A stretch of 45,862 bases of DNA from a bacterium. GTDB taxonomy: Bacteria > Patescibacteriota > Patescibacteriia > JAZDEU01. Positions 354 through 39,980 of this stretch are shown piece after piece. The translations under genes were made by a program, and so were the position numbers. Below the pieces are notes generated by a model. It was not told where the DNA came from. It saw only the letters and a list, made by a program, of their open reading frames with translations, and searched no databases. Numbering within the stretch: position 1 is the first letter of the stretch; every line of letters begins with the position of its first letter. The stretch covers positions 1 to 45,862 of the forward strand of contig JAZDEU010000020.1 in NCBI GenBank assembly GCA_043808545.1, given 5' to 3'.

Positions 354-1346
354 TTAAAAAGGGAGAACTTTATCAATCGTCTTCACTCTTAATAATATCA
401 TCACTAGTCTATCAATTCCAAGCGCGTTGCCTCCTGCTTTACCGATAAAATTTAATTTTTCGCATAATTCATAATCAATCGGAAGTTCTGGTTTGCCAAA
501 TTTTTCGCGTTCGCGATTTTCGTGCTGGAACCGCGCGAGTTGTTCTTTGCCATCTGTTAATTCTGAAAAGCCATTGCATAGTTCTATTTCGTTTATGTAT
601 AACTCAAATCTTTCGGCTAATAGTGGATTATTTTTTTTCAGTTTTGCTAAACACGCGAGAGGAGCGGGGTAATCAATTAAGAAGAATGGTGTTTTGGGCA
701 ATTTAGGTTCTATCTCATTTAAGAATAGTAAATTAAAGCATTGCTCATAGTTTAAATTTCTATCTTTGCTGTATCCGCGCGAGTGAACAATTTTTGTGAA
801 CACTGGCAATTTTAATTCTTCTACTTTATCAATTTTTGAATATTTTTTAAAAAGAGCGGATATCTTTAAGCGGGGAAATGGCGTTGTATAGACAGGTTTA
901 AAAACTGTCTCTACATTTGCGGATAGAAAATCTATCAAATTTTCTGTATCTTTCATAACATCGTTATAATCAGCATTTTTGCGATACCATTCAAGCATTG
1001 TAAATTCTATGCTATGTATCCCAGTATATTCTTCTCCATCGCGAAATACTTTTGTGATAGTGAAAATATTATTCATTTCTTGAAGCGAGAGCAGTTTTTT
1101 CATTGAAAATTCAGGTGAGGTGATTAGGTATTTTTTTATTTTGCGATTTTGTAGAGACGCAAAATTTTGCGTCTCTACGGTCGCAGGGTGAATTTCAGTT
1201 TCTAAAATATTAAGATTTGGAGATAGATCAGGGCAATTAACTAAAATAGGAGTTTCAACTTCAAAAAAATCGTTTTTATTAAACCATTCTCTTATATTTG
1301 CTAATATTTTAGCGCGAGTTATTAGATTGGATGTTTTTTGTTGCAT
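354..1346 (-). CDS. epmA: EF-P--(R)-beta-lysine ligase (EpmA/GenX/PoxA, truncated class II LysRS paralog)
   Basis: 330 aa with a class II aaRS core and no anticodon domain. FEVETP, ITSPEFSMKKLL, EFTMLEWY, ERFELYINEIELCNGFSELTD and GNALGIDRLVM are collinear with E. coli EpmA. Confidence 0.7.
   Translation of the reverse strand: MQQKTSNLITRAKILANIREWFNKNDFFEVETPILVNCPDLSPNLNILETEIHPATVETQNFASLQNRKIKKYLITSPEFSMKKLLSLQEMNNIFTITKVFRDGEEYTGIHSIEFTMLEWYRKNADYNDVMKDTENLIDFLSANVETVFKPVYTTPFPRLKISALFKKYSKIDKVEELKLPVFTKIVHSRGYSKDRNLNYEQCFNLLFLNEIEPKLPKTPFFLIDYPAPLACLAKLKKNNPLLAERFELYINEIELCNGFSELTDGKEQLARFQHENREREKFGKPELPIDYELCEKLNFIGKAGGNALGIDRLVMILLRVKTIDKVLPF
1151..1178. repeat. 28-bp perfect palindrome GTAGAGACGCAAAATTTTGCGTCTCTAC embedded in frame in epmA
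   Basis: Read directly from the sequence. It is translated as VETQNFASL inside a variable loop of EpmA. A sister copy lies at 6430-6457. Confidence 0.9.
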
Positions 1347-1456
1347 AAAGATTGTTGTATGTGGTATAATATTAGTATAAAGTATTTAGTATAAAGTATC
1401 AAGGAGACTGAATCATGAATCAGAAATTATGAATTAAGAATTATGAATCAGGAATC

Positions 1457-1903
1457 ATGAATAAAGATATGAAAAAAATAATTTTGTGTATAATTGTTCT
1501 ATTTTTAGCTAGTTATTTTTGCGTTCGCGGAAATTATTTAAAGGCTGAGGAATCTGCGGAAACAACAAAAGGTCTTTTAGAGGAATATAATACGAAAAAA
1601 GTTTTGCAAGAAGGGATAGGAAGCAATTTCCCTACAAGCGAAACTGTTACAGAAGATTCTTTATATATAACAATAGGCAAAATGATAGATGTAATATTAG
1701 GGCTTGTTGGAGTCTTACTTATAATTTTAGTTATATATGGAGGATATTTATGGTTTTCCGCTGATGGGAATGAAGAGCAGATAGGTAAAGCGAAGGCGTA
1801 TATAATGAATGCAATTATAGGTCTTGCTATAGTTTTAATGGCATATATGTTTACTTCTTATGTTATGACTAGAATTAGCGGGGATATAGGGAAATTGACT
1901 TAA
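1457..1903 (+). CDS. TrbC/VirB2-like 'T4SS pilin' family small membrane protein
   Basis: N-terminal signal/TM segment, then a C-terminal helical hairpin (LVGVLLIILVIYGGYLWFSADGNEEQIGKAKAYIMNAIIGLAIVLMAY) typical of the CPR pilin-like family. Confidence 0.55.
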   Translation: MNKDMKKIILCIIVLFLASYFCVRGNYLKAEESAETTKGLLEEYNTKKVLQEGIGSNFPTSETVTEDSLYITIGKMIDVILGLVGVLLIILVIYGGYLWFSADGNEEQIGKAKAYIMNAIIGLAIVLMAYMFTSYVMTRISGDIGKLT

Positions 1904-1910
1904 TATTTTT

Positions 1911-2384
1911 ATGAAAAAAAATAATATTTTTAAAGAATTATCTATTTTTTTAATTATTTTTGTTTTATTTTTTGTTTCTTTTAATAATTTTTGCAAAGCA
2001 GAAGAAGAAAAAAAACAATGGGAAACTGCTTTGGAAACTGTTGTTGGACAAACAGAATATAAGCCAGTTGATAGTGAGACAAATTTAACAAAGCAAATTG
2101 CCAATATTATAAAAATTTTTCTTAGCTTGCTAGGAATAATTTTTGTTCTTTTCACGATTTACGCGGGTTTTTTATGGATGACTGCGGAAGGGAATGATGA
2201 GCAGGTAGCGAAATCAAAGATGATTATTAAGAATTGTATAAATTGTATAATAGGGTTGATGATAGCTTTATCCGCTTACGCGATTACTTATTATGTGACT
2301 GAAAATATAATACAAGTAACGAAGGAAGAGGGGGGGATAAAAAATAAAAATACTTGGTCGCCATTTAAAAAATATGAAAAGTAG
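1911..2384 (+). CDS. TrbC/VirB2-like 'T4SS pilin' family small membrane protein (tandem paralog)
   Basis: Same architecture as the previous gene: IFVLFTIYAGFLWMTAEGNDEQVAKSKMIIKNCINCIIGLMIALSAY. It lies 7 nt downstream of its paralog. Confidence 0.55.
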   Translation: MKKNNIFKELSIFLIIFVLFFVSFNNFCKAEEEKKQWETALETVVGQTEYKPVDSETNLTKQIANIIKIFLSLLGIIFVLFTIYAGFLWMTAEGNDEQVAKSKMIIKNCINCIIGLMIALSAYAITYYVTENIIQVTKEEGGIKNKNTWSPFKKYEK

Positions 2385-3435
2385 TGAAAAGTATTTGAAT
2401 AAAATAAATGATTTAGCTAAAAAGATAAAGCGTAACATAAAATTAATGGAAGTATGCGGAACTCATACGCAGGTTATAGCGCAATACGGGATTAAAAATG
2501 TTTTGCCTTCTAATATTAAATTAGTTTCAGGGCCTGGGTGTCCTGTTTGCGTAACTGCGAAATCTGACATTGATAATGTTGTTGCAATGGCGTTATCAGG
2601 AATTCCTATTTTCGCTTATGGCGATATCATCCGTGTGAGAGGAAACGGTTTTAGTCTGGCGGAGGCTAGAGAAATGGGAGCTAGTGTACGGGAAGTTTAT
2701 GGAGCAGAAGAAATTTTTAAATTAAATAAGAAAACAGTTTTTTTTGGCATCGGCTTTGAAACAACCGCTCCTATGACTGCATCTATTATAAAACGGGGCG
2801 CTATGGTTTATTCCGCGCATAAGGCGTTTATTCCCGCCATGAAAGCATTATTGCAAAGCGGGGAAATAAAAATAGACGGATTGATTTCTCCAGGGCATGT
2901 GGCGGCGATAGTTGGCGCGGATGTTTTCAAGGATTTTAAAACTGAAAATAATAAATATATTCCGCAAGTTATCGCTGGGTTTGAGATAGAAGATGTGTTT
3001 AAAGCGATTATACTGCTTTTAAAACAAATCGCGGATGGACGGGCGGAAACAGAGAATGCTTATACAAGAGTAGTTTTGCCAGAGGGAAATATTAAGGCGT
3101 TAAAATTGATAGATGAAGTTTTTGAGGTGGAAGATAGCGAGTGGCGTGGACTAGGAGTGATTCCAAATTCTGGATTTAAGTTGCGAAAAGAGTTTGAAGA
3201 CAGAGATGCGAAAATTATATACGGGGATATAATTACACAGATAGACGCAGATGTGAACACAGATAAACACAGACATGGATGTTTATGCGGTTCGGTGATA
3301 AAAGGTCTTAGTGAACCACAAAATTGTTCACTGTTCGGAAAGTTTTGTACTCCAGAAAATCCGCAAGGACCTTGTATGGTTTCTGTTGAAGGTTCTTGTT
3401 GTGTGGCGTATAAAAATAAGACAGAAAAACAGTGA
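2374..3435 (+). CDS. hypD: [NiFe]-hydrogenase maturation factor HypD
   Basis: MEVCGTHTQ, GPGCPVCVT, GFETTAP and PGHV motifs, plus the C-terminal Cys cluster CLCG...C...C..P.GPCMVSVEGSCC. It overlaps the pilin gene by 11 nt. Confidence 0.85.
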   Translation: MKSSEKYLNKINDLAKKIKRNIKLMEVCGTHTQVIAQYGIKNVLPSNIKLVSGPGCPVCVTAKSDIDNVVAMALSGIPIFAYGDIIRVRGNGFSLAEAREMGASVREVYGAEEIFKLNKKTVFFGIGFETTAPMTASIIKRGAMVYSAHKAFIPAMKALLQSGEIKIDGLISPGHVAAIVGADVFKDFKTENNKYIPQVIAGFEIEDVFKAIILLLKQIADGRAETENAYTRVVLPEGNIKALKLIDEVFEVEDSEWRGLGVIPNSGFKLRKEFEDRDAKIIYGDIITQIDADVNTDKHRHGCLCGSVIKGLSEPQNCSLFGKFCTPENPQGPCMVSVEGSCCVAYKNKTEKQ

Positions 3436-3529
3436 TATGAAATATTGTTTTTAAAAGTGAAAGATGTTAGAATTATAGTAAATTATCTTAAAAAATTAGT
3501 TTTTAAAATTATTAAAATTATTAAAAAAT

Positions 3530-4966
3530 ATGTTAGAAATAAATCCATATATTTTCAGAGGCTATGATCTGCGCGGGGTTGTAGATAAGGACTTAGATGT
3601 TGATGTAGTAGAGCTGATCGGGAAGGGCTATGGAACTTTTTTACGAAGAAGAAAAATATGTCATGCGGTTTTAGGTCGCGATTGCCGTTTGAGCGGGAAA
3701 AAGTTTTCTGAAGCGATGATCAAGGGAATGACGTCAATGGGCATAAATATTATTGATTTAGGAATGATTATGACGCAGATGATGTATTATGCTCAATATC
3801 GCTATCAGACAAATGGCGGTGTGATAATAACTGCTTCCCATAACCCAGCGAATTATAATGGGATGAAACTCGCAACTGGTTATTCGCAAACAACAGTACA
3901 AGAACAGATGGAAGAGATAAAAAATATAGTATTAATAAAGGATTTTTTTAATTCGGATGAGATTGGCGCAGTTGAGAAGAAAGATGTTACAGAAGATTAT
4001 TATAAAGATTTGCTAAAAAGAGTAAAAATAAAGCGAAATTTTAAAGTAGTTGTTGATTCTAGTTTTGGGACAACTGGAGTGTATATTCCTGAAATATTGA
4101 AGCGCGCGGGTTGCGAAGTGATCGGGAAAAATTTAGAAGTAGACGGAAATTTTCCATTAGGCACTCCTGATCCGACGGAAAAAAAAGTGGTTGACAGAGT
4201 AGCAAAGGCGGTTTTAAAAGAACATGCAGATATTGGGTTGGCTTTTGATGGCGACGGAGATCGCATAGGATTAGTTGATGAAAAAGGAAACATTTTATGG
4301 AATGATGTGTTAGTCGCTATTTTCGCTCAAGAAATTTTAGAAAGATTTCCATGCTCAAAGATTGTTTATAATAATTTATGTTCGCAAGTTGTTAGAGAAG
4401 TTATAAAAATGAATAATGGAATTCCTGTTATGTGGAGGACAGGGCATTCGTTTATGAAAGCGAAAATCGCAGAAGTAAAAGCCGTTTTCGGCGGTGAATT
4501 GTCAGGCCATTTCTTTTTTGCGGATAATTTTTACGGTCATGACGATGGAGCTTATGCCGCTTTAAGATTGCTTGAATATTTTTCAGAAAAGGATAAAACC
4601 GTGGGGCAAGTGTATGAGAATTTTCCAAAATATATTTCTTCTCCAGAAATAAAAATCGGATGCCCGGACGATAAGAAGGTCGCTGTTATAAAGAATTTAT
4701 CCATCAAATTTAAAGAAGATTTTCCAGATGCGAAAATTACGGATGATACGATTATTCCTAATGATGACGCGATAAGAGCGGATTTTGAAGATGGGATGAT
4801 GATATTCAGATATTCGCAGAATGGTCCGTATATAACTGTAAAATTTGAGGCAAAGGATGAAAAGATTTATGAGGAGAGGAAAAAATACGTGAGAGATATT
4901 TTAAAGAGTTATCCTGATATGATTTGGGAAGGTGAGCTTTGCGTTAATTTAGAATCATTGGAATAG
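3530..4966 (+). CDS. phosphomannomutase/phosphoglucomutase (alpha-D-phosphohexomutase family)
   Basis: Active-site TASHNPANYNGMK, metal loop FDGDGDRIGLVD, GELSGH sugar loop, 478 aa. Confidence 0.85.
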   Translation: MLEINPYIFRGYDLRGVVDKDLDVDVVELIGKGYGTFLRRRKICHAVLGRDCRLSGKKFSEAMIKGMTSMGINIIDLGMIMTQMMYYAQYRYQTNGGVIITASHNPANYNGMKLATGYSQTTVQEQMEEIKNIVLIKDFFNSDEIGAVEKKDVTEDYYKDLLKRVKIKRNFKVVVDSSFGTTGVYIPEILKRAGCEVIGKNLEVDGNFPLGTPDPTEKKVVDRVAKAVLKEHADIGLAFDGDGDRIGLVDEKGNILWNDVLVAIFAQEILERFPCSKIVYNNLCSQVVREVIKMNNGIPVMWRTGHSFMKAKIAEVKAVFGGELSGHFFFADNFYGHDDGAYAALRLLEYFSEKDKTVGQVYENFPKYISSPEIKIGCPDDKKVAVIKNLSIKFKEDFPDAKITDDTIIPNDDAIRADFEDGMMIFRYSQNGPYITVKFEAKDEKIYEERKKYVRDILKSYPDMIWEGELCVNLESLE

Positions 4967-4978
4967 TAAATTAGCATA

Positions 4979-5557
4979 TTATAATTTAGTGATAATTTTG
5001 TCTAACTGTTTGTATAATTCTTTTTCACTCCCGTTATTGTCTATAATAAAATCCGCGGTTTTTCCGATTTTTGGAATCTCGCTCTCTACTTTGCTTTTTT
5101 CGTCTCGCTTGAACTGGGCAAGAGTTTTTTTATTGTCATCGGAATTTTCTCTGCGTTTTTTTATCCTTTCAAGGCGGATATCAATATTAGCCGTTACATA
5201 AATTAGTTTGAAATTTTTTAGTTTTTTAAGATATAGAAGCTCGGGTGATCTTCTTATTCCGTCTATTATGATTAGATTGCGCCTATCTTTTTTTGCATCC
5301 TCGCATAAGACTTTTGAAAATAAATCATTACCAAAAGATTTTCTTAGAGCTTTGGATAAAGTTTGGATATTTTCTCTTGATTGCTCTATATATAATCGAT
5401 CTAAAATATCCCGTAACATTGTTGAAAATCGGTAATAACTCGCGTTATATTTTTTAATTAAGTATTTGCATGATGTCCCTTTGCCTCCAGCGAGTTCTCC
5501 GACGAAACCTAAGATTATTTTTTTATTTTGCATATAAATTTTATTATATCTTGACAT
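4979..5557 (-). CDS. P-loop nucleotide/nucleoside kinase-like protein (CoaE / dNMP-kinase-like)
   Basis: Walker-A-like GELAGGKGT at the N-terminus, IIIDGIR Walker-B-like strand, about 190 aa. Its context next to ndk/folA/thyA suggests a nucleotide kinase. Confidence 0.45.
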   Translation of the reverse strand: MSRYNKIYMQNKKIILGFVGELAGGKGTSCKYLIKKYNASYYRFSTMLRDILDRLYIEQSRENIQTLSKALRKSFGNDLFSKVLCEDAKKDRRNLIIIDGIRRSPELLYLKKLKNFKLIYVTANIDIRLERIKKRRENSDDNKKTLAQFKRDEKSKVESEIPKIGKTADFIIDNNGSEKELYKQLDKIITKL

Positions 5558-5649
5558 TTTTATGAAAATTTGGTTAGATTATAGGATATCTTGCTCTTTA
5601 CAGGGTTTTTCTCACATAACAGTAACCCTTTTTATAGGAGGATAAGGCA

Positions 5650-6093
5650 TTGGGAAAAGAAAGGACACTGGTAATTATTAAGCCCCATATTTTTTTGGAT
5701 AACGACGCGCAAAAAGTTAGTTTAATAATTGGGGATATTTTGCGCAGATATTTAGAACGTAGGTTGTCAGTTGTCGCCGTGAATTCGTTTTGTATGGATC
5801 GTGATGCAGTGGCAGGATTTTATCAAGAACACAATGGGCGGCCGTTCTTTAATGATTTAATAAATGCAATGATTGCAGCTCCAAGTTTTTTCATTGTTTT
5901 AGAAGGAGAATACGCTGTTCAGAAGGTGCGCAGTATCAACGGAGCAACAAATCCATTGGAAGCCGCGCAAGGGACATTGCGGCGGGATTATGGGCGGATG
6001 GAAAAGGGACCGAATAATGCAGTTCACGGATCCGATTCAGTAGAAAGCGCAGAAAGGGAAATAGCATGTTTTTTTCCTGAATTAGCTAGGTAA
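5650..6093 (+). CDS. ndk: nucleoside diphosphate kinase
   Basis: TLVIIKPH and NAVHGSDS (catalytic His) motifs. TTG start 8 nt after a rare perfect AGGAGG. Confidence 0.85.
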   Translation: MGKERTLVIIKPHIFLDNDAQKVSLIIGDILRRYLERRLSVVAVNSFCMDRDAVAGFYQEHNGRPFFNDLINAMIAAPSFFIVLEGEYAVQKVRSINGATNPLEAAQGTLRRDYGRMEKGPNNAVHGSDSVESAEREIACFFPELAR

Positions 6094-6116
6094 TTTTTCC
6101 TCACATTTTTTTATCC

Positions 6117-6155
6117 AAGGGGATTGCTTACAAAAAGCTTTCCCCTTATTTTTTT
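6117..6155 (+). terminator. rho-independent terminator after ndk
   Basis: AAGGGGA ... TCCCCTT stem followed by ATTTTTTT. Confidence 0.55.
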
Positions 6156-6171
6156 ATAATTACGTGTAAAA

Positions 6172-6212
6172 ATCCCCCTAACCCCCTTTTATAAAGGGGG
6201 AACTATGGGGAT
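6172..6212. repeat. nested GC-rich hairpin (ATCCCC..CCCCCTTT tat AAAGGGGG..GGGGAT) abutting the folA stop codon
   Basis: Read directly. Same C5/G5 hairpin style as the elements at 14683-14707 and 33106-33128. Probably a bidirectional terminator. Confidence 0.6.
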
Positions 6213-6713
6213 TTATCTCCCCAATTCCACAAATTTATATTTTAATCCATTATATTCGTGTTTTTCTTCGCTTAATATATTTTTAAATTCAGTGTAATCT
6301 GGGAAGAAAGTGTCTGCGTCTTTTGGGGAATCTTCAACAATCGTTAAATATAATTTATCCGCGCAGGGAATCGCTTGGCGGTAAATTTCCCCTCCTCCGA
6401 TTACGAAAATTTCTGGCGGCGCGCTGATTGTAGAGACGCATTGCAATGCGTCTCTACTAATCTGTATCGCCTCATCAAGCGAATTGCAAATATGGCATCC
6501 TTCGGCTTTATAATTTTTATCTCTTGTAATTATAATATTAACTCTATTTGGGAGCGATTTACCGATTGATTCAAAAGTTTTTCTGCCCATTATTACGGGA
6601 TGATTTTCTGTTATTTTTTTAAAATGCTTTAAATCATCTGGAATATTCCAGATTAGTTTATTATTTTTACCAATAGCATTATTTTCCCCTAAAATACAAA
6701 TAACATTTATCAT
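6213..6713 (-). CDS. folA: dihydrofolate reductase
   Basis: IGKNNKLIWNIPDDLKHFKKIT..PVIMGRKTFESIG and VIGGGEIY are collinear with E. coli FolA. It carries an extra ~10-aa loop (SRDALQCVST) encoded by the palindrome. Confidence 0.85.
   Translation of the reverse strand: MINVICILGENNAIGKNNKLIWNIPDDLKHFKKITENHPVIMGRKTFESIGKSLPNRVNIIITRDKNYKAEGCHICNSLDEAIQISRDALQCVSTISAPPEIFVIGGGEIYRQAIPCADKLYLTIVEDSPKDADTFFPDYTEFKNILSEEKHEYNGLKYKFVELGR
6430..6457. repeat. 28-bp perfect palindrome GTAGAGACGCATTGCAATGCGTCTCTAC embedded in frame in folA
   Basis: Read directly. It has the same 11-bp arms as 1151-1178 but a different 6-bp centre, and is read in a different frame (RDALQCVST). Confidence 0.9.
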
Positions 6714-12749: not shown

Positions 12750-13019
12750 GGGTCATACAGAATATTGCCATAGCGAGCCTTAAAATATAGTAAAAAAAAG
12801 TTGCATAGTTCAGATCATACGCAATTTAGGGTTAGTGTTTTTGTCATTTCGACCGAACGAAAAAATATTTATGGAGTGAAACGCAGTAAATACTTTTTTC
12901 GTGAGTGGAGAAATCCCTTTTAAATAGGCTAAATAATAACAGATTCCTCCGCCCCCCCCACCCAGAGCTCTGGGTGGGGGTCGGAATGACATTCTACAAC
13001 CCTATATTCTGTATGACCC
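12750..13019. mobile_element. 270-bp MITE-like non-coding element with 16-bp perfect terminal inverted repeats (GGGTCATACAGAATAT)
   Basis: TIRs at 12750-12765 and 13004-13019. It contains inner inverted copies of GTCATT(T/C)CGACC and a 26-bp GC palindrome at 12955-12980. It has no coding capacity beyond a repeat-derived 60-aa ORF. Confidence 0.55.
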
Positions 13020-14295: not shown

Positions 14296-16205
14296 AAATT
14301 AGAAATTATTGCTTATTAGTATTGTGCATTGCATTATTTTGTTTGTGCGGGCATTTTGTCATCGCCGCTGAGATGGCGAATCCCATTTATTCAATTCGCA
14401 TAGACGAGGAGACGATTAAGAAGGGATATGATATTAAGGGATTTGATGATAATTTTCAAGTCGCTGTTTTTCCGTTTGTTTTAAAAACTCCGACGAGGAT
14501 TGAATTAAAAAACAGAACGGAGATTGCGAAGAGTGAAAATGTGAATAAATTGGAGGCGGCTGGGAATGAAGATAACGCGGATGTGATAAATAATATTTCT
14601 ACAACTACGAATGATGTTATTTATTCTTCCAGTACTGATTTTATCGCATCATCTACGGAGCAACTGGAAGTTGAAAATAACACCCCCCTTGCCACCCTCA
14701 AGGGGGGGACAATTTTATTATTAGGCGAAAATCCAGACGGCTGGGAAATAAACAGCGATATTTATGAATTTGATGTCCGAGATAAAGATGCTTATGATGG
14801 TAAGAAACCTTTTATTGTGTCAATAAGATATGATGATAATGTTGATTTAAGTATTAACACCTCCCCTTCGGCAAGCTCCCGCCAAAAGGGCGGGCAGGCA
14901 GAGCAGGCTCTTGCCACCCTCAAGGGTGGATTTCATTTAAACAGAAAAAAAATATTTTATTTTGACAGCGGGAGGAATGAGTGGATTCCTTTGCCTTCAA
15001 CGATAATGTACGGAGATAATTTGGTGAGAGCTGTAATTCAGCTTTCTTATGCAAAACTTGCAGTGTTTGAAAATGATGGCATTCTTAGCATTGGCGAGGC
15101 GAGCTGGTATAAATATAAAGGGTGCAACTGCGCGGCAAGTCCTGATTATCCAAAGGGAACAAAGCTGAAAGTAACAAATCTTTATAATGATAAGTCCGTA
15201 ATTGCTGTAGTGAATGATTATGGACCAGAGAGGGATATATTTCCCGATCGCGTTGCTGATCTTGATCTTGAAGCGTTTTCTAAAATCGCAAAAAAGGGCG
15301 TGGGAGTGATTGATGTAAAAGTTGAGCCGTTAGATGAAATTTGTTCTTATGCTTTTGAAAAAGCGAAACATCCAGAAACGCCAGCTCCTGAAATTAGCGC
15401 GCCTTTTGCCATTGTGATAGATGAGCCGACTGGGGAGGTTCTTTATAAAAAAGGCGAAGATAAAAAAGTTCCGATTGCGAGCATTAGCAAATTGATGACT
15501 GCGAGTGTGTTCTTGAGTGTGATGCGTAATTCGTCAGGGTCCCTTTCAGGAGACTCTGACGGGACATCTCGCGCCACACTCAAGGGGGGAACTAATGTCC
15601 AGCTTAATGGATGGAATAAAATAATTACCTACAATAAAGCCGATGATTTAGACGGCGCGAAATTATATGTGAATGATGGTGAAACGATGACTATCAAAGA
15701 TATTTTTTATTCTATGCTTGTCGGTTCTGCAAATAATGCCGCGAAAACTTTGGTAAGGAATTCTGGAATTGGATATAATGATTTTGTGGAAGAGATGAAT
15801 AAAAAAGCTAAAGAGTGGAAATTAAATAATACAGAGTTTAAAGATCCGACAGGTCTTAACACAGAGAATGTCAGCACTGCGTTAGATGTTGCTAATATGG
15901 CGCGGCAGGCGTTAAAAGATTTTGAGATGTTAAAAGCCACAACTATATCTCAATATTCATTTAAAACGATAAATACAGGCAATGCGCATATTGTGAAAAA
16001 CACAGATAATCTTCTTCTTGATAAAGATTTATATATAACCGGAGCAAAAACTGGATTTTTGAATGAAGCGGGATATTGTCTTGTTTTAAAAGCAAAAAAT
16101 AAAAATGATGGCAGAGAAGTAATCGCTGTTGTTTTGGGAGAGTCCAGTTCTGAGGCGCGGTTTGATGATATAAAAAAATTGGCGCAGTGGGGATTGGGGG
16201 AGTAG
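14244..16205 (+). CDS. secreted fusion protein: RlpA-like DPBB domain + serine-type D-Ala-D-Ala carboxypeptidase (peptidase S11)
   Basis: TM/signal segment; GEASWYKYKGCNCAASPDYPKGTKLKVTNL..VIAVVNDYGPE (RlpA/DPBB); SxxK (ASISK), SxN (SANN), KTG (KTGF). The track start at 14217 overlaps the upstream pseudogene, so the ATG at 14244 is preferred. Confidence 0.75.
   Translation: MSRTQKEIKNFIKNWKLEIRNYCLLVLCIALFCLCGHFVIAAEMANPIYSIRIDEETIKKGYDIKGFDDNFQVAVFPFVLKTPTRIELKNRTEIAKSENVNKLEAAGNEDNADVINNISTTTNDVIYSSSTDFIASSTEQLEVENNTPLATLKGGTILLLGENPDGWEINSDIYEFDVRDKDAYDGKKPFIVSIRYDDNVDLSINTSPSASSRQKGGQAEQALATLKGGFHLNRKKIFYFDSGRNEWIPLPSTIMYGDNLVRAVIQLSYAKLAVFENDGILSIGEASWYKYKGCNCAASPDYPKGTKLKVTNLYNDKSVIAVVNDYGPERDIFPDRVADLDLEAFSKIAKKGVGVIDVKVEPLDEICSYAFEKAKHPETPAPEISAPFAIVIDEPTGEVLYKKGEDKKVPIASISKLMTASVFLSVMRNSSGSLSGDSDGTSRATLKGGTNVQLNGWNKIITYNKADDLDGAKLYVNDGETMTIKDIFYSMLVGSANNAAKTLVRNSGIGYNDFVEEMNKKAKEWKLNNTEFKDPTGLNTENVSTALDVANMARQALKDFEMLKATTISQYSFKTINTGNAHIVKNTDNLLLDKDLYITGAKTGFLNEAGYCLVLKAKNKNDGREVIAVVLGESSSEARFDDIKKLAQWGLGE
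14683..14707. repeat. GC-rich hairpin CCCCCCTTG-ccaccct-CAAGGGGGG inside the CDS (encodes PLATLKGG)
   Basis: Read directly. Decayed copies at about 14909-14927 and 15573-15589 also encode ATLKGG. Confidence 0.8.
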
Positions 16206-22340: not shown

Positions 22341-22369
22341 GTAGGGTGCGTATTGCAATACGCCCGTAC
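22341..22369. repeat. imperfect palindrome GTAGGGTGCGTATTGCAATACGCCCGTAC between ftsE and ftsX
   Basis: 16-bp perfect core GCGTATTGCAATACGC, with the same TTGCAA centre as the folA palindrome; bulged outer arms. Confidence 0.75.
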
Positions 22370-23316: not shown

Positions 23317-23365
23317 ATATTTATAAGTTCTCGCGCAGGAATTGAAATATTTTTTCCGCCACAGT

Positions 23366-23438
23366 CTCCGTTAGGGACTGCGGCGTTTCCTCGCACTCGT
23401 TGCAGTCCCCTTTGGGAGACTGCAACGGAGAATTTGAA
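23366..23438. repeat. nested GC-rich hairpin after ftsX (CAGTCTCC..GGGACTGC - loop - GCAGTCCC..GGAGACTG)
   Basis: Read directly: two 8-bp stems stacked around small internal loops. Possible terminator. The track's minus-strand ORFs here are repeat translations. Confidence 0.6.
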
Positions 23439-39962: not shown

Positions 39963-39980
39963 CCTGCCTGCGCAGGCAGG
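39963..39980. repeat. 18-bp perfect GC-rich palindrome CCTGCCTGCGCAGGCAGG
   Basis: Read directly, 28 nt after the stop of the preceding gene. No T-run follows. Confidence 0.8.

Follow-up and report, generated by a model that had tools for sequence, protein, structure and literature searches.

What kind of sequence can be read through two unrelated housekeeping genes of one genome, in frame in both and as a different peptide in each? The question is raised by a contig of a patescibacterial metagenome-assembled genome (GenBank GCA_043808545.1, contig JAZDEU010000020.1; its full 45,862 nucleotides are here called the window), in which epmA and folA each contain a copy of one 28-bp perfect palindrome. 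The two copies are most probably repetitive extragenic palindromes (REPs) of the GTAG "double-foot" type, the type that accompanies subclass 2.4 of the REP-associated tyrosine transposases (RAYT, or TnpA-REP, of the HUH-Y1 enzymes). The window is contig C20 of an assembly (G000) of 878 kb in 71 contigs, with 34% G+C and 82% completeness; several of the named nearest homologs of FolA and EpmA carry the labels Candidatus Falkowbacteria or Patescibacteria.

Anatomy of the Two Palindromes

The copy in epmA, GTAGAGACGCAAAATTTTGCGTCTCTAC, resolves into GTAGAGACGCA-AAATTT-TGCGTCTCTAC and occupies positions 1151-1178; the copy in folA, GTAGAGACGCATTGCAATGCGTCTCTAC, is GTAGAGACGCA-TTGCAA-TGCGTCTCTAC and occupies 6430-6457 (no strand is assigned to either). 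Both are perfect palindromes with identical 11-bp arms, located exactly where a first-pass annotation had placed them, and both begin with GTAG at the 5' end and close with CTAC at the 3' end. All four occurrences of the 11-mer arm in the window are accounted for by the two arms of each copy; a window search allowing up to three mismatches returns the epmA and folA copies only, with none expected from 100 dinucleotide-preserving shuffles. Folded as RNA, a 48-nt segment around the epmA copy (1141-1188) reaches -25.3 kcal/mol (z = -7.9), to which the flanks contribute a 5-bp outer stem, and the corresponding segment around the folA copy (48 nt, 6420-6467) reaches -22.5 kcal/mol (z = -6.3). The flanks of both copies form short, interrupted outer stems.

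The host genes, which the first-pass annotation assumes to be essential, are both on the minus strand. epmA (354..1346) encodes a 330 aa elongation factor P (EF-P) lysine aminoacylase that matches TIGR00462 with 296.5 bits (cut-off 286.9) and also PF00152; folA (6213..6713) encodes a 166 aa dihydrofolate reductase (DHFR) matching PF00186 with 176 bits. Read on that strand, the epmA copy gives VETQNFASL (context ...PATVETQNFASLQNRK... / ...HPATVETQNFASLQNRK...) and the folA copy gives (S)RDALQCVST (context ...IQISRDALQCVSTISAPPEIFVIGGG... / ...AIQISRDALQCVSTISAPPEIFVIGGG...), in agreement with the annotated translations. Each is in frame with its host open reading frame (ORF), and the two are read in different frames; the element is therefore conserved at the level of DNA and not of protein, as the annotation had maintained. 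The third frame contains TAG, which leaves only the two observed frames open, and because the element is a palindrome the same two frames are open on either strand.

Insertion Sites in EpmA and FolA

The EpmA insert sits in the loop joining the ILETEI strand to the KKYLITSPEF strand, a segment described in the first-pass annotation as variable, and its orthologs bear this out. The ortholog of the same-family genome G001 has no insert at the site (ILSANITNLNKQKKYLITSPEF), while in the L017 ortholog the codon position used in the window is occupied by the same REP, GTAGAGACGCATGGCAATGCGTCTCTAC, with no change of frame; G002 (L203) has an unrelated insert of ~35 aa with TTCCCGC..GCGGGAA inverted repeats, and G003 (L205) an unrelated insert of ~55 aa derived from a longer palindromic element (GTCATCCTGAGGGAGCGACGAAGG...). 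From these alignments the EpmA loop appears to be a point of repeated insertion. Between the window and L017, EpmA is 80% identical as protein and epmA 76.5% identical as DNA, falling to 58.6% at third codon positions, and the residues adjoining the REP differ (HPAT/QNRKI in the window, RTNS/QQTQ in L017); the two REP copies nevertheless agree at 22/22 arm bases (P about 0.003). Since the arms are fully identical while the gene diverges, this pair also indicates conservation of the epmA REP at the DNA level.

The FolA insert separates the helix SLDEAIQ... from the strand EIFVIGGG. In an alignment with 3tq8, the nearest DHFR of known structure, the 10 residues QISRDALQCV of the window have no counterpart, and the loop-bearing segment, which measures 37 residues here, is mostly 28-29 residues long in 107 close homologs, with a tail to 73; the ~10-residue extra loop of the first-pass annotation is thus confirmed. 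Alignment of 25 FolA homologs (A1) includes several proteins of 156-158 aa that have no insert at the loop, and others with unrelated inserts of about 5-45 residues exactly at this loop. Insert-free copies, which the annotation had proposed to seek by aligning orthologs, therefore exist for both proteins. One FolA homolog (P0008, 64% identical) reads VETQNFAS in the loop, that is, the other REP frame; its DNA (L018) is GTAGAGACGCAAAATTTTGCGTCTCcgc, the same REP with one arm decaying.

AlphaFold modeling gives FolA a mean predicted local distance difference test (pLDDT) score of 93.3, and only residues 91-100 fall, to 69; the insert is predicted to prolong the helix and then to form a loop. The EpmA model has a mean pLDDT of 79.8 and two stretches with values under 50: residues 59-66, which lie between strands 49-52 and 70-74, and residues 105-112, which are distant from the insert. 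In both models the host fold is predicted to be retained and the insert to be a low-confidence surface loop, in line with the annotated view that such elements colonize surface loops without destroying the protein. The inserts would here be translated as roughly 9-10 extra loop residues.

Distribution of the Palindrome

The exact arm pattern is found twice in the 878-kb assembly, both times in the window, so that uniqueness to two sites, which the first-pass annotation had named as grounds for refutation, is literally true of the exact arms in this genome; it is overturned by related copies, of which there are five more in the assembly and hundreds elsewhere. The relaxed pattern AGAGAC..GTCTCT within 30 nt gives seven copies in all, the two of the window included, where a reversed control pattern gives two. 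One of the other five (C49:2952) lies in a 1047 aa UvrD / PD-(D/E)XK helicase-nuclease, reads VETHCNASL and is 27/28 identical to the folA copy, having lost its first G. Another is within a 750 aa membrane ORF that has no Pfam match, another near the N-terminus of a sigma-70 region 4 / HARE-HTH protein, and two further copies are in short frames; the host genes are unrelated to each other.

Among 401 genomes of the class, 67 contain GTAGAGAC-N10-14-GTCTCTAC, at up to 49 copies per ~1-Mb genome, with 0-1 for the reversed control. A wider scan for the exact pattern GTAGAGACGCA-N6-TGCGTCTCTAC gave at least 120 DNA stretches (L019-L138) from more than ten phyla; the hosts include Bacteroidota, Chloroflexota, Planctomycetota, Acidobacteriota, Cyanobacteria, several proteobacterial classes, Spirochaetales, Zixibacteria, Cloacimonadota, Gracilibacteria, Parcubacteria, and others. 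The matches listed contain 128 copies, 56 of them in open frames of at least 150 aa, and across phyla the exact pattern occurs both in intergenic DNA and in unrelated genes. The central six bases of these 128 copies are usually palindromic themselves (CGGCCG in 24, AAATTT in 20, ATGCAT in 16). Searching the literature for the sequence of the element returned unrelated primer matches only.

Nesting within longer perfect palindromes, defined as at least three extra paired bases on each side, was seen in 14 of the 128 copies from other phyla, where about 2 are expected (p = 1.7e-8; for example L075, L093, L099, and L121), and also in L185 and L176; the palindromes of G240 measure 45-58 bp.

The flanks of the copies, when pooled, show a pyrimidine at -1 in 73%, and Y at -1 together with A at +1, in one orientation, in 49% of copies; this faintly hints at a 30-nt unit of the form Y-GTAG...CTAC-A. 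Direct repeats that would indicate a target-site duplication were sought beside the copies examined and none was found, the flanks instead extending the palindrome or showing Y at -1 and A at +1; a miniature inverted-repeat transposable element with target-site duplication was rejected on this ground.

Association with RAYT Genes

Scanning 120 palindrome-centered stretches revealed RAYT-like ORFs in which the palindrome lies in frame just after the HUH motif (L069, L113, L051, L084, L035, and L052); in L024, L040, and L108 it lies in an open frame just past the RAYT-like sequence or at its edge, and L024 has a second copy just beyond the 3' end of the gene. The motifs of these palindrome-bearing loci and of the patescibacterial RAYTs below are MPNH[IVLF]H, WQ(P/S)R(Y/F)(H/Y)D, and YIxNNP. 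The RAYT-like ORFs tested match NCBIfam NF047646 (REP-associated tyrosine transposase) only; L069 scores 80.8 bits against a cut-off of 80, and three others score 58-64 bits. In some Bacteroidota RAYT genes (L052:4563-5768, L035:812-1600) long tandem peptide repeats accompany the in-frame REP, such as DDGRGLHG repeated ~25 times, HDSHDS..., and PHET...; these repeats enlarge the HUH-to-REP region, which in L052 attains ~180 residues.

Within Patescibacteria, ten RAYT genes from high-copy genomes contain an internal GTAGAGAC palindrome (L174, L176, L177, L180, L185, L186, L187, L192, L198, and L200), and most of them have a second one adjoining the gene. Within its RAYT gene G011 has a REP (L174:1711-1738) that is 28/28 identical to the epmA copy and encodes VETQNFASLQN, and the REPs flanking RAYT genes of G238 (L180, L186, and L198) are 28/28 identical to the folA copy. 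Two further families of the class have RAYT genes at which 28-mers match both window copies exactly. The association also holds at the level of whole genomes: a match to NF047646 is present in 61/67 palindrome-bearing genomes of the class and in 180/334 of those that have no palindrome (odds ratio 8.7, p = 1.4e-9). PF01797 was tried as a RAYT proxy and rejected, as it retrieves mostly IS200-type genes, gives the relevant clade only 21-31 bits, and yields an odds ratio of 2.4; NF047646 was used instead.

In ten Y1 loci of related genomes, neither the Y1 gene nor its flanks contained a GTAGAGAC copy; these loci carry other REP types (GTAGRCAAGGC..., AGCGGAGAG...), with one GTAGAGAC-type palindrome ~2 kb off in L151. 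Two GTAG-type hairpins lie within the RAYT gene of L151 (2527-2579), AGCGGAGAG..CTCTCCGCT hairpins stand on either side of that of L155 (2445-3203), a GTAGACAAGGC hairpin (553-576) lies within the second RAYT-like ORF of L152 (1-681), and a further hairpin (AGACAAGAGC..., 2444-2467) lies within the RAYT ORF of L153. As the REP types at these four loci differ, several RAYT-REP pairs coexist in the class.

Comparison with Known REP Systems

Subclass 2.4 of the RAYTs, equivalent to Bertels group 4, is characterized by the motifs NH[IFV]H, WQ, and YIxNNP in a protein of ~194 aa, by "double-foot" REPs with 5' GT[AG]G and 3' C[TC]AC, and by abundance in Cyanobacteria and Bacteroidetes with a scattered presence in other phyla (Quentin, Siguier, Chandler & Fichant 2018, BMC Genomics 19:475; PMC6006769). 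The system described here resembles it in the GT[AG]G / C[TC]AC feet on a hairpin, in RAYTs of about 190-200 aa with these three motifs, in REPs that flank the transposase gene and also form part of its reading frame, where they separate the HUH motif from the Tyr motif, and in a patchy distribution over Cyanobacteria, Bacteroidetes, and various phyla. It differs in that the host list of PMC6006769 does not name Patescibacteria or the Candidate Phyla Radiation (CPR), and in that the RAYT gene is absent from this assembly, the window copies being in housekeeping genes and not at a transposase gene. A published pairing of RAYT with CPR or Patescibacteria was not found in the literature searched.

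REPs within genes for known proteins have been reported for the GTAG and CGTC types, many of them in replication and repair genes, and have been viewed as tolerated insertions into loops or linkers (Di Nocera, De Gregorio & Rocco 2013, BMC Genomics 14:522; PMC3733652). The copies here are likewise small, GTAG-tagged, in-frame palindromes, one of them in a UvrD-like helicase; however, in that survey the tag is unpaired at one end, whereas here GTAG is mirrored by CTAC, and the survey covered the complete genomes available in 2013, which did not include CPR.

The first-pass annotation had compared the element with the Rickettsia palindromic elements (RPEs), a likeness that stands for the behavior, while the element itself has the build of a GTAG double-foot REP and not of an RPE. 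RPEs, whose original description is reportedly that of Ogata et al. in 2000, are also selfish palindromic DNA lying in frame in working genes of a reduced genome and read as an extra surface peptide. There is no sequence relationship, the lineage is another one, and RPE-1 is a longer palindromic insert. RPE-4 and RPE-6 have been equated with CGTC REPs, whose tag has no known dedicated transposase (PMC3733652); membership among the RPEs was rejected, the present element being 28 bp long with GTAG feet and not the CGTC tag of RPE-4/6.

GTAG-footed hairpins tied to a single-copy domesticated Y1 transposase, with mobilization in trans as the model, are a further point of likeness to the REP doublets (REPINs) and RAYTs of Pseudomonas and E. 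coli. The pairing of REPINs with RAYTs in these bacteria was reportedly described by Bertels & Rainey in 2011. The difference from these REPINs and REPs lies in numbers and placement, as there is only a handful of mostly intragenic copies here; classical REPs usually exceed 100 copies per genome and are extragenic, according to Nunvar et al. 2010 (PMC2817692).

Proposed Mechanism and Alternative Explanations

It is proposed that the repeat folds into a hairpin on single-stranded DNA, and that a RAYT would recognize the hairpin stem together with the GTAG foot and would cut and rejoin the strand, by analogy with other Y1/HUH enzymes. Cutting and rejoining could spread copies to new sites, genes included. 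Most intragenic insertions would be lost; the survivors would be those that add a whole number of codons, offer a stop-free frame (VET..ASL or RDA..CVST), and fall in a tolerant surface loop. RAYT-driven insertion filtered in this way would explain why the same EpmA and FolA loops bear different palindromic inserts across Patescibacteria. Transposase-driven mobility, with RAYT catalysis acting on these REPs, is inferred, as are the timing and direction of the insertions and the translation of the inserts.

Several observations weigh against this proposal. This genome and five others among the 67 that bear the palindrome have no RAYT match, and over half of the palindrome-free genomes have one; the association is therefore statistical and not one-to-one. 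Copy number in this genome is low (2 exact, 7 relaxed), unlike that of classical REP families. The 28 bp of the element are not divisible by three, and the length of the inserted unit is merely hinted at by the flanks. High-identity pairs of filled and empty orthologs were not found, the nearest insert-free orthologs being 65-72% identical with further loop indels. Even in E. coli the mechanism by which TnpA-REP disseminates its repeats is described as poorly understood in PMC8266576. Finally, searching this assembly, 82% complete as it is, with NF047646 gave 0 hits, and tblastn of five Patescibacteria RAYTs against it returned the REP-encoded peptide in epmA only.

The sole Y1 gene of the assembly is an IS200-type tnpA (C67:361-717; PF01797, 139.6 bits), probably a pseudogene as judged by an in-frame TAG after ~40 codons. 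It has its own flanking hairpins, CCACCGAC...GTCGGTGG, unrelated to GTAGAGAC, and derivation of the palindromes from an IS200/IS605 element was rejected for this reason. The same-family genomes G001, G002, and G003 all have a RAYT match (3/3). As no RAYT gene is present in the assembly, the seven copies have probably become relics that no longer move, unless the ~18% of the genome not recovered contains the gene; relics would fit both the low copy number and the decayed variants.

Spread of the palindromes by other means than a RAYT, be it recombination or gene conversion, template switching at hairpins during replication or repair, or an IS200-type TnpA acting in trans, is considered unlikely. 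It would suit an assembly that has an IS200-type Y1 gene and no RAYT, as well as the six palindrome-bearing genomes that have no RAYT match, and the excess of nested palindromes could mean hairpin-driven copying; however, the IS200 gene is interrupted and its hairpins are of another kind, identical REPs lie in and beside RAYT genes of many genomes, and the association with RAYT is strong where that with PF01797, mostly IS200-type, is much weaker. Retention of the hairpins for a role at the level of nucleic acid, such as a translational pause, an mRNA stability element, or a protein-binding site, with the REP origin secondary, is quite improbable in its turn. The complete arm identity between the window and L017 despite divergent third codon positions and adjoining residues speaks for such a role, as does the very high stability of the RNA hairpins, yet the arms would be just as identical if a conserved mobile sequence had been inserted recently or more than once. 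Moreover, G001, the closest named relative with an EpmA gene, is insert-free, the inserts of G002 and G003 are unrelated, the FolA copy of L018 is decaying at one arm, the C49 copy is minus its first G, and the host genes are not related to each other.

That the extra residues are an ancestral or convergent feature of the proteins can practically be dismissed. In its favor, the corresponding loop of E. coli EpmA is moderately long, and a gap-free HMMER alignment to E. coli GenX (3a5z) pairs the VET of the element with a conserved FET, as if EpmA did not differ in length; this was rejected as a misregistration, since alignment A2 puts the F-x-T strand at ILETEI, upstream of the insert. The reading is already contradicted by the same DNA giving different peptides in two frames, by the existence of insert-free orthologs, and by the occurrence of the same 28-mer in intergenic DNA and unrelated genes of many phyla. 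Equally negligible is the chance that the palindromes are an artefact of assembling a metagenome: fragmentation into 71 contigs at 82% completeness might invite the suspicion, but long reading frames run intact across both copies, and independent assemblies have the family at the same loops (L017 and L018). Mobilization of double-foot REPs by a RAYT of subclass 2.4 is preferred over these alternatives.

Other Palindromes of the Genome

A sister family, GTAGGGGC..GCCCCTAC, is represented in the window by a decayed copy of the form GTAGGG..TTGCAA..CCCGTAC (22342-22369, no strand assigned), which is extragenic and starts just 3' of the stop codon of a 233 aa open frame. A stop codon that ends a long ORF precedes four of the seven GTAGGG-type copies examined, at a distance of 5-14 nt; the sites noted are that of the window, C39:3918, C43:15435, and C5:3118. 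The sister family is thus placed like a classical REP, while the GTAGAGAC family is mostly intragenic in the same genome.

At least six more small GC-rich palindrome families are scattered in the assembly: CCTGCCTGCGCAGGCAGG, CCCCYTT..AARGGGG, CGYCRSAGTC..GACTSYGRCG, GAAGGCGACAGCTCGAGCTGTCGCCTTC, CCCCCACCCAGAGCTCTGGGTGGGGG, AGCGCCAGTTGC..., with example sites in the window at 39964-39979, 14684-14706, 12955-12980, and 23357-23385. Copies in open frames of at least 150 aa number 10/19 for the CCTGCCTGCGCAGGCAGG family and 24/36 for the CCCCYTT..AARGGGG family, and recurrent peptides from these palindromes include LPAQAG and SPLxKGG. The UvrD / PD-(D/E)XK helicase-nuclease of C49 (~1400-4700) contains, besides the GTAGAGAC REP, a second and different in-frame palindrome, a CCTGCCTGCGCAGGCAGG-type insert (LRPACAGGRQALGMT); two such elements in one repair helicase recall the finding in the literature that repair genes are rich in intragenic REPs.

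Significance

Intragenic REPs and REPs inside RAYT genes have both been published already, and nothing here is new in principle. RAYT-linked REPs have been known chiefly from between the genes of Proteobacteria, Cyanobacteria, and Bacteroidetes; the finding means that in Patescibacteria, whose ultra-small genomes leave little room between genes, they also reshape core enzymes (DHFR, EpmA, and a UvrD-like helicase). Odd GC-rich peptide patches, such as VET..ASL and RDA..CVST, are thereby explained, as is length variation in CPR protein alignments; masking these patches is advisable when homology is searched, phylogenies are built, or structures are predicted.

The more interesting question is whether the loops are targeted landing sites or merely tolerant positions. 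It is possible, if doubtful, that the EpmA and FolA loops serve repeatedly as landing sites, where one hairpin element takes over from another in different Patescibacteria. Such sites would fit the same REP at the same codon with perfect arms in two EpmA orthologs and in the other frame in another FolA, the at least three unrelated palindromic inserts in these loops among sister genomes, and the identical 28-mers at RAYT genes in two other families, whose outer 22 bases are exact in more than ten phyla. If this were true, it would imply an ongoing horizontal flow of the subclass 2.4 RAYT-REP system into ultra-small episymbionts, and site-directed insertion, for example into sequences that already form hairpins on the lagging-strand template; REPs would then be a regular source of loop variation in the housekeeping proteins of Patescibacteria.

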